This document shows, one piece after another, positions 2,402 to 2,616 of a DNA stretch of 4,518 nucleotides. Origin of the DNA: a virus (taxonomy: Duplodnaviria; Heunggongvirae; Uroviricota; Caudoviricetes); IMG/VR virus record IMGVR_UViG_2706794689_000007. The stretch is one strand, 5' to 3'. Under the pieces are notes generated by a model. That model was not told where the DNA came from. It made no database searches and worked only from the letters and a program-made list of their open reading frames with translations. Position 1 is the stretch's first letter, and each line of letters opens with the position of its first letter. The translations under genes were made by a program, and so were the position numbers.

Positions 2402-2414
2402 AAACTGGCATGGT

Positions 2415-2556
2415 GAATCCCCCTGTGCGGAGGGGCAATCAGCGAGTAGGTATATGGGATAATCGCGGATTCAGGTGCTGGTACTGAATTCACCGGGAGG
2501 CACCCGGCATCATGCAATGGCACATAGCGCCACTCTCCAGCCCTCTCCGGAGGGGC
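2415..2556 (+). repeat. Direct repeat copy 1 (~142 bp); candidate structured RNA element ending in terminator-like hairpin
   Basis: Matches 3556-3698 with one substitution (2510 T vs 3651 C) and one 1-nt indel. 5' hairpin CCCCT-GTGCGG-AGGGG (2420-2435); GAATCC (2415-2420) complementary to GGATTC (2467-2472); CCGGG-AGGCA-CCCGG (2494-2508); 3' hairpin GCCTC-CTCCGGA-GGGGC (one G-U pair) followed by TTTT (2557-2560). Confidence 0.9.
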
Positions 2557-2616
2557 TTTTCTGTGCCGGATACATCACAGTTTCTGGAACCTTAGGTACT
2601 ACAGTATCAGTCAGGG

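Follow-up and report, generated by a model that had tools for sequence, protein, structure and literature searches.

Two copies of the STnc100 small RNA in a lambdoid prophage and support for a pseudoknot in their conserved 5′ domain

A repeat that occurs twice in a 4,518-nt stretch of Caudoviricetes DNA (IMG/VR record IMGVR_UViG_2706794689_000007; hereafter the window) is an RNA already catalogued as STnc100, belonging to the EcOnc27/PasD group, the Hfq-associated sRNAs found in prophages of pathogenic E. coli. In a scan of all Rfam families, copy 1 matches STnc100 (RF02076) at positions 2379-2568 with 123.6 bits (E 8.8e-28, model positions 1-206), and copy 2 matches it at 3527-3711 with 74.9 bits, though its 5′ part reads N; the family's curated gathering score is 47 bits. 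Every helix of the RF02076 consensus structure can form in the window sequence, and the location of the window is that of the family, the late region of lambdoid prophages and phages of Enterobacteriaceae. A preliminary description had read the repeat as a structured small RNA, and this reading is borne out by the Rfam match, by covarying stems, by a conserved promoter-like element and by an intrinsic terminator. The Rfam search that it had proposed returns an sRNA family for both copies, rather than the 3′ UTR of a protein gene, and the stems for which it had sought covariation do covary among 81 diverse relatives. Each unit is probably an autonomous sRNA gene of the STnc100 family, situated in the prophage ‘moron’ zone between the Q/tRNA cluster and the lysis genes. 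For the window, the outcome is one of annotation, the repeat being two genes that belong to a catalogued family of prophage sRNAs. Because STnc100 was already described, the novelty is low, though both the original observation and its reading were correct. The remaining interest lies in an unexplained, very conserved and pseudoknotted 5′ domain and in a cassette-like exchange of the 3′ part, which are refinements of a known family and not a new type of element.

The window corresponds to the late regulatory region of a lambdoid prophage. It opens with the C-terminal part of antiterminator Q (PF03589), followed directly by the pR′/tR′ region (about 420-525), a small ORF and an N6/N4 DNA methylase gene (PF01555) that is broken by a masked run. 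The stretch at 420-525 contains the terminator CCCGCCGCCGAGCGGGTTTTTT and gives weak, sub-threshold matches to isrK and Trp_leader. Two tRNA genes come next, a tRNA(CAT) at 2050-2125, annotated as tRNA-Ile in relatives, and a tRNA-Arg(TCT) at 2226-2302. They are separated by 100 nt of non-tRNA sequence (2126-2225); a third tRNA-Arg lies between the two in E. coli O121, CFT073 and phi296. A terminator scan places the intrinsic terminator of the tRNA cluster at 2317-2334 on the plus strand (a 7-bp stem, then T8), and copy 1 begins 74 nt from it, just downstream as first described. Between the STnc100 copies, and also between masked runs, lies an unannotated ORF of 113 aa (2949-3290), which has no Pfam match and is likewise unannotated in a 99%-identical stretch of CFT073; it adjoins a masked DUF3927 gene that is placed there by homology. 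After copy 2 come a minus-strand homologue of iraM (3735-4070), a name that RefSeq gives to the gene in CFT073, and a DUF1737 gene. Three runs of N mask part of the methylase gene (1274-1489), the sequence after copy 1 (2689-2938) and the promoter and 5′ end of copy 2 (3301-3555). A similar gene order, with variations, is found in annotated prophages of E. coli O121, CFT073 and strain 2D, and Stx-converting phages share the synteny of the window. E. coli E2348/69 has a reduced form, in which Q or an upstream hypothetical gene, DUF3927, PasD and holin/lysozyme follow one another without the methylase and the tRNAs.

The two copies are nearly identical where both are visible. Positions 2415-2543 and 3556-3684 agree at 128 of 129 nucleotides (99%), the sole mismatch being T2510 in copy 1 against C3651 in copy 2. 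A 1-nt indel follows in the 5′ arm of the terminal hairpin, where copy 1 has CCC (2541-2543) and copy 2 has CCCC (3682-3685). Past the indel, the copies are identical as far as GGGGCT (2557 and 3699), and the alignment ends right there, in agreement with the earlier remark that homology stops at the 3′ hairpin. Copy 2 carries the family-consensus C3651, which forms a G-C pair in the closing helix P1, together with the full CCCC in its terminator. The N run at 3301-3555 conceals the 5′ limit of copy 2, and the visible part of this copy extends on the plus strand from GAAUCC, the junction after P1, to the terminator (3556-3702). Homologous prophages indicate what the mask covers. Window positions 2939-3300 and 3556-4460 map to CFT073 (locus L002) positions 3501-3862 and 4121-5025, and the 258-nt gap between them contains the DUF3927 coding sequence and, after it, sequence 96% identical to window 2338-2560. 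The equivalent of copy 2 in the IMG/VR contig L186 is built likewise, and over CFT073 and L186 the identity to window 2338/2350-2560 is 96-97%. By homology, the masked stretch thus holds the DUF3927 gene, the promoter and the P1 5′ strand of copy 2. Since these equivalent copies match the window from 2338 or 2350 onward, the repeat unit is about 220 bp long and includes the promoter; a repeat had been recognized correctly, but its length of about 142 bp was an underestimate.

We now consider how widely the RNA occurs. The STnc100 relatives that we examined also match the STnc100 model, and PasD loci fall below its gathering score. A search of 5426 complete E. coli genomes with copy 1 and its flanks (window 2303-2688) found similar sequence in 2719 of them, the number of sites per genome having a median of two and a maximum of 13; about half of these genomes thus carry STnc100-type sRNAs. 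A 15-base degenerate pattern scan of genome contigs gave only chance matches in unrelated phyla (L006-L125), and the diversity of the family was drawn from IMG/VR and from GenBank phages. In all three of the genomes inspected for it, RefSeq places an incomplete ‘hypothetical protein’ pseudogene inside the STnc100 unit (L001 4096-4221, L002 4104-4229 and L003 3604-3729, corresponding to about window 2395-2523 on the minus strand). This antisense pseudogene is probably an annotation artefact arising from an unannotated RNA gene.

The 5′ domain of the RNA (2408-2515, plus strand) is structured and conserved, as delineated by RNAalifold, a minimum free energy (MFE) fold and pair counts in 81 family cores. 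It comprises the long-range closing helix P1 (2408-2415/2508-2515; GCAUGGUG/CACCAUGC), the CCCCU/AGGGG hairpin P2 (2420-2424/2431-2435), the 8-bp helix P4 (2467-2474/2484-2491) and the CCGGG/CCCGG hairpin P5 (2493-2497/2503-2507). The CCCCT/AGGGG hairpin, inner complementary segments and GC-rich 3′ hairpin of the preliminary description are all recovered by RNAalifold, the MFE fold and the terminator scan. When 13 variants from annotated phages and prophages were aligned and folded with RNAalifold, P1, P2, P4, P5 and the terminator were obtained, with compensatory changes in 6 pairs. A larger and more diverse collection was assembled by an IMG/VR scan with a P5 20-mer and by nhmmer, yielding 81 cores less than 97% identical that were aligned with MAFFT without structural fitting. 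In this alignment, 84.5% of the cells are paired, compared with at most 49% when the partners are slid, and the covariation score is 0.295, compared with at most 0.123; none of 500 shuffles reaches the observed values. Both sides are altered in 6 of the 8 pairs of P1 and in 7 of the 8 pairs of P4, and covariation across 81 diverse members supports these two helices. P2 and P5 are conserved in sequence, P5 being nearly invariant, and for this reason covariation says little about them. As P5 was fixed by the search pattern, the scan was repeated with P2 as the only anchor; the exact P5 20-mer was present in 95 of 117 distinct segments, and a version within four substitutions in all of them. The MFE of the single sequence is no better than that of dinucleotide shuffles (z = -0.21), so the structure rests on comparative evidence. 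The one mismatch between the window copies falls within P1, where T2510 turns a G-C pair into G-U, and pairing is therefore kept in copy 1.

In addition to its nested helices, the 5′ domain contains a pseudoknot. Alignment inspection and covariation identify a pairing on the plus strand between 2438-2444 (AUCAGCG), after P2, and 2476-2482 (UGCUGGU), in the loop of P4; because this pairing crosses P4, it forms a pseudoknot. Its complementarity is kept as the sequence varies, with combinations such as CUGGUG/CACCGG, CCAGUC/GACUGG, UAAUGAC/GUCAUUG and ACUGGAUA/UAUCCAGU, and with AAUGAUC/GAUCAUU in PasD. Complementary segments occur in 59 different combinations among 110 distinct cores, and the best helix has a mean length of 6.8 bp, compared with 5.2 +/- 0.11 bp when the partner segments are permuted among sequences. 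Counted by columns, all 6 pairs are altered on both sides; the paired fraction is 63%, a value depressed because subfamilies in the MAFFT alignment are one base out of register with each other. RNAalifold and the MFE fold instead propose a 3-bp helix on some of the same bases (2442-2444/2464-2466, the base of a ‘P3’). Its bases are paired in 47.7% of the cells across 81 sequences, which is chance level, and we consequently dropped it in favour of the pseudoknot. The Rfam consensus displayed by cmscan lacks the pseudoknot, and a preprint on Pas and STnc100 RNAs makes no mention of it (bioRxiv 10.64898/2026.05.13.724894). The pseudoknot is supported by covariation and is a refinement of a known family.

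The boundaries of the transcript were assigned by alignment and by motif. For PasD2, RNA-seq gives an estimated start at NC_011601:741157; this base opens P1 and aligns with G2408, so that the RNA of copy 1 most likely starts there, rather than at 2412 as previously proposed. Upstream of G2408, the best sigma-70 geometry scores 8 of 12 consensus matches and defines a predicted promoter at 2372-2401 on the plus strand, with a -35 element TTGTCT (2372-2377), an 18-nt spacer and an extended -10 element TGt-TAAAAG (2393-2401). We infer this promoter from the sequence, and by consensus it would be weak; a strict scan did not pick it up. Promoter elements had been suggested at 2365-2401; the TTGACA at 2365 is an unlikely -35 element, since it lies 25 nt from the -10 element, too far for sigma-70. 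The predicted copy 1 promoter aligns with the TTGACT/TAAAAA promoter region of PasD1 and PasD2. Across 120 distinct upstream sequences of the family, many of them mutually unrelated, the promoter-like match averages 7.7 of 12 at exactly that offset, compared with 6.16 +/- 0.11 for shuffled sequences and 6.0-6.4 at other offsets. This positional conservation argues that the units are autonomous genes starting at P1.

At the other end, the terminator scan finds an intrinsic terminator for copy 1 at 2539-2562 (plus strand), with the stem 2539-2545/2550-2557, a bulged G at 2555 that results from the 1-nt deletion, and the tail UUUCU; the family consensus for comparison is CCCCUCUCCGGAGGGG. The predicted transcript of copy 1, placed by its Rfam match, the PasD2 alignment and this terminator, is accordingly about 155 nt long (2408-2562, plus strand). 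The terminator of copy 2 (3680-3711, plus strand), read from sequence and alignment, has a perfect 8-bp stem (3680-3687/3692-3699) and an interrupted U tract, GUUUAUAUUGA; its tail is GUUUAUAUUG, and the homology to the family ends just past the stem, where the iraM module begins. Either the bulged stem of copy 1 or the broken U tract of copy 2 could lower termination or Hfq binding. The iraM homologue is convergent to copy 2, with its stop codon about 33 nt from the copy 2 terminator. Since the U tract is interrupted, read-through from copy 2 could run antisense into iraM.

Between the 5′ domain and the terminator lies a variable, mostly single-stranded region (2516-2538, plus strand), which reads AAUGGCACAUAGCGCCACUCUCC(AG) in copy 1. 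Among the aligned variants of E. coli phages and prophages, at least three alternative segments occur between P1 and the terminator, and more occur in IMG/VR. The window's version, AAUGGCACAUAGCGCCACUCUCC, is common to an Stx1 phage, phi296, Stx2_PV11-59 and PhiR5_1, whose central regions differ, and distant STnc100 members have wholly different 3′ segments and terminators. The STnc100 family is modular: its 5′ domain is conserved, and the single-stranded 3′ region with the terminator can be exchanged. In PasD, the seed lies in the corresponding 3′ part, as do the chimera coordinates of PasD1, making 2516-2538 the candidate seed; by this analogy, the segment may act as a seed in the window copies. 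A target scan of the 3′ segment within the window revealed no cis target, as its best non-self duplex has -22.1 kcal/mol and the shuffled seeds average -23.6 kcal/mol. Strong conservation in the 5′ domain, and not in the putative seed, is atypical for a plain base-pairing sRNA.

The same modularity extends to the arrangement of whole units. In CFT073, the segment equivalent to 2939-3300 is followed by DUF3927, an STnc100 copy and iraM, and the first copy is absent; in O121, the tRNAs are followed by an STnc100 copy and then by the sequence of 2561-2688. Contig L186 (1216-5767) carries the window's blocks in another order, and its first copy has both of the copy 1 changes, the T in P1 and the 1-nt deletion in the terminator. 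None of 5,426 complete E. coli genomes covers the whole two-copy arrangement, the best matches joining part of it only. The arrangements in CFT073, O121 and L186 contradict a tandem duplication as the origin of the two copies, which are best read as the product of a mosaic recombination of prophage modules each carrying a copy, and STnc100 units appear to sit at the recombination joints of such modules. Elsewhere, units do occur close together. Three IMG/VR phage contigs contain STnc100 units arrayed in tandem, 3-5 at a time and repeating every 253-261 nt or so (L146 342-1038; L157 1702-2340; L190 4349-5513 and 8357-8555). In the array units examined, the 3′ segment differs from unit to unit and most units end in a terminator-like hairpin; L190 also has a match to isrI (RF01392) between its STnc100 units. 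In O121 (L001 4077-4267 and 4545-4754) and strain 2D (L003 3585-3775 and 4053-4262), two distinct STnc100 variants spaced about 470 nt apart closely precede a SASA/NanS-p esterase gene, and paired paralogues with different 3′ segments recur in several prophages.

Together, these features suggest how a unit would work. A weak sigma-70 promoter with an extended -10 element would direct transcription from the first base of P1, G2408. The first 108 nt or so would fold into a compact domain of four helices around a junction, tied by the pseudoknot between the post-P2 strand and the P4 loop; a largely unpaired variable segment of about 23 nt and a Rho-independent terminator would follow. By analogy with relatives, Hfq would be bound through the terminator and its U tail, and the variable 3′ segment would pair with chromosomal and prophage mRNAs, while the conserved 5′ domain would probably serve as a stability or recognition module. 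Transcription, Hfq binding and target pairing of the window copies are thus expected from published relatives, and for the window's own variant we can only infer a seed and targets. Tentatively, and with considerable reserve, the 5′ domain may be a functional RNA module in its own right. Under this proposal, the P1-P2-P4-P5 junction with its invariant junction bases, the near-invariant CCGGGAGGCACCCGG hairpin and the pseudoknot would form a chassis onto which phages swap 3′ seed-and-terminator cassettes, so that these RNAs would belong to a class of structured chassis plus exchangeable seed rather than to the ordinary Hfq sRNAs. The domain could bind a protein or a ligand, or could be a processing signal; stacked P1 and P5, with 13 bp, recall an acceptor/T minihelix. 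A likeness to tRNA, to HDV-like or hatchet ribozymes, to lambda boxB or to HK022 put RNA was rejected, having no ARAGORN or Rfam support, and we take the STnc100 helix topology to be unlike that of HDV-like ribozymes.

Several other explanations would assign the conserved features a different role. The window copies might be mainly passive homology blocks for the recombination of modules, decaying remnants without an RNA function. The reordered modules of L186, the single copy of CFT073 and the other arrangement of O121 would fit such a role, as would a homology that stops exactly at the terminator, and both copies carry blemishes, with two stem-weakening changes in copy 1 and a poor U tract in copy 2. 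However, the compensatory changes and the positionally conserved promoter across the family show that an expressed RNA is under selection. The two changes in copy 1 are also mild, a G-U wobble and a single bulge, and the same allele persists unchanged in the L186 arrangement, which marks it as a maintained allele and not as fresh decay. A recombination-site role is, moreover, compatible with an RNA function, and we regard purely passive blocks as improbable. It is rather less probable still that the unit is a cis-acting leader or attenuator, whose 5′ domain would be a sensor controlling the terminator and the downstream moron genes, with the sRNA as nothing but a prematurely terminated product. 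A promoter, a pseudoknotted junction with invariant bases, a variable linker and a terminator do resemble a riboswitch with its expression platform, and many phages have the nanS-p esterase or lysis genes immediately downstream of the unit. Yet copy 2 faces the convergent iraM gene on the minus strand and has nothing downstream to control, units also occur in tandem arrays of 3-5 with a terminator-like hairpin on most of those examined, and in VT2-Sakai a convergent AsxR gene abuts the terminator. The Hfq-dependent chimeras of PasD with distant targets (PMC8550237) likewise speak against a cis-acting element.

A protein product is the explanation to which we give the least credence. A small protein could start from ATG 2512 (27 aa), which has GGGAGG 11 nt upstream, or from GTG 2475 (53 aa), and ribosome footprints have been recorded on some EDL933 STnc100 copies, with coverage values up to 3.2; coverage is, however, low for most of the EDL933 copies (PMC5331693). 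The ATG 2512 frame had been described as the only ORF in the unit, but a GTG ORF (2475-2636) and minus-strand ORFs also cross it, and none is conserved. Both plus-strand ORFs are shifted between the copies by the 1-nt indel, which upholds the earlier argument that the loss of the ATG 2512 ORF in copy 2 favours an RNA function. The AUG itself sits in P1, where relatives have ACG, ACA or other triplets with compensation on the opposite strand, and the region downstream of it is swapped between variants. An autonomous sRNA gene therefore remains our preferred reading. Its pseudoknot, strongly conserved 5′ domain and cassette-like 3′ exchange provide handles for mutational work on the STnc100 family.

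Published work provides evidence for expression of the relatives. In E. coli EDL933, Rfam annotates 11 STnc100 copies, for which RNA-seq reads were obtained, and one of them, STnc100_4, gave a band on a Northern blot (PMC5331693). EcOnc27/sRNA103, an sRNA that crosslinks to Hfq, overlaps with the STnc100 copy downstream of stx2B (PMC4104026, PMC7873438, PMC12711010), and a machine-learning study has linked variants in the STnc100 copy of Stx2 phages to clinical outcome (PMC12711010). By RIL-seq, PasD1 and PasD2 form Hfq-dependent chimeras with distant targets, and the differential-expression table of the same study gives no significant drop of PasD abundance in an hfq mutant (PMC8550237). The PasD RNAs have been proposed to be diverged relatives of STnc100 that share a common ancestor with it (bioRxiv 10.64898/2026.05.13.724894). 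STnc100 qPCR primers have been used for outer-membrane vesicles (PMC12370729); these primers match window 2410-2429 and 2483-2502 exactly.

Among the known systems, EcOnc27/sRNA103, located downstream of stx2B in Stx2 phages, resembles the window units in its helices, in its layout from promoter to terminator and in its location between Q and the lysis genes, and the 5′ domains of the window units and of VT2-Sakai EcOnc27 are closely similar. The window differs from it in a shorter central P3 region and in the 3′ single-stranded segment, which is AAUGGCACAUAGCGCCACUCUCC here and AGUAUACAGAGAUUAGGCAUAUACCAAGG in EcOnc27. The window copies also lack the adjoining convergent AsxR, and copy 1 follows a tRNA cluster rather than stx2B. 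PasD1 and PasD2 of EPEC E2348/69, with the homologue EcOnc13 in EHEC, have a homologous 5′ domain, comprising GCAUGGUGAAUCC, P2, the pseudoknot, P4 and a P5-like hairpin, and they follow a DUF3927 gene, as copy 2 does. In PasD, however, P5 is shortened, the 3′ seed is UGUGAG, which is absent in the window, and the terminator is a different one; the PasD arrangement of UGUGAG upstream of a GGCUGCGCA...UGCGCAGCC terminator is not found in the window, whose homology to PasD is confined to the 5′ domain.

AsxR and AgvB (RF02703 and RF02702) occupy the same prophage zone and form convergent pairs with STnc100-type sRNAs in EHEC (PMC4104026); in VT2-Sakai and P27, AsxR directly abuts STnc100. They are likewise modular, with a variable 5′ end and a conserved 3′ end, but unlike STnc100 they are 51-60 nt long and lie on the opposite strand. 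The window has no RF02702 or RF02703 match at E <= 1, the sequences downstream of its copies are not alignable with AsxR, and neither the terminator scan nor the alignment found a minus-strand terminator-like hairpin after either copy, which rules out membership in such a convergent dyad. Finally, StxS is, like STnc100, an Hfq-binding sRNA of the prophage late region (PMC7873438). It arises immediately after Q as the terminated pR′ transcript, a position that corresponds to about 420-525 in the window; the STnc100 units are 1.9 and 3.0 kb beyond this point and apparently have a promoter of their own.
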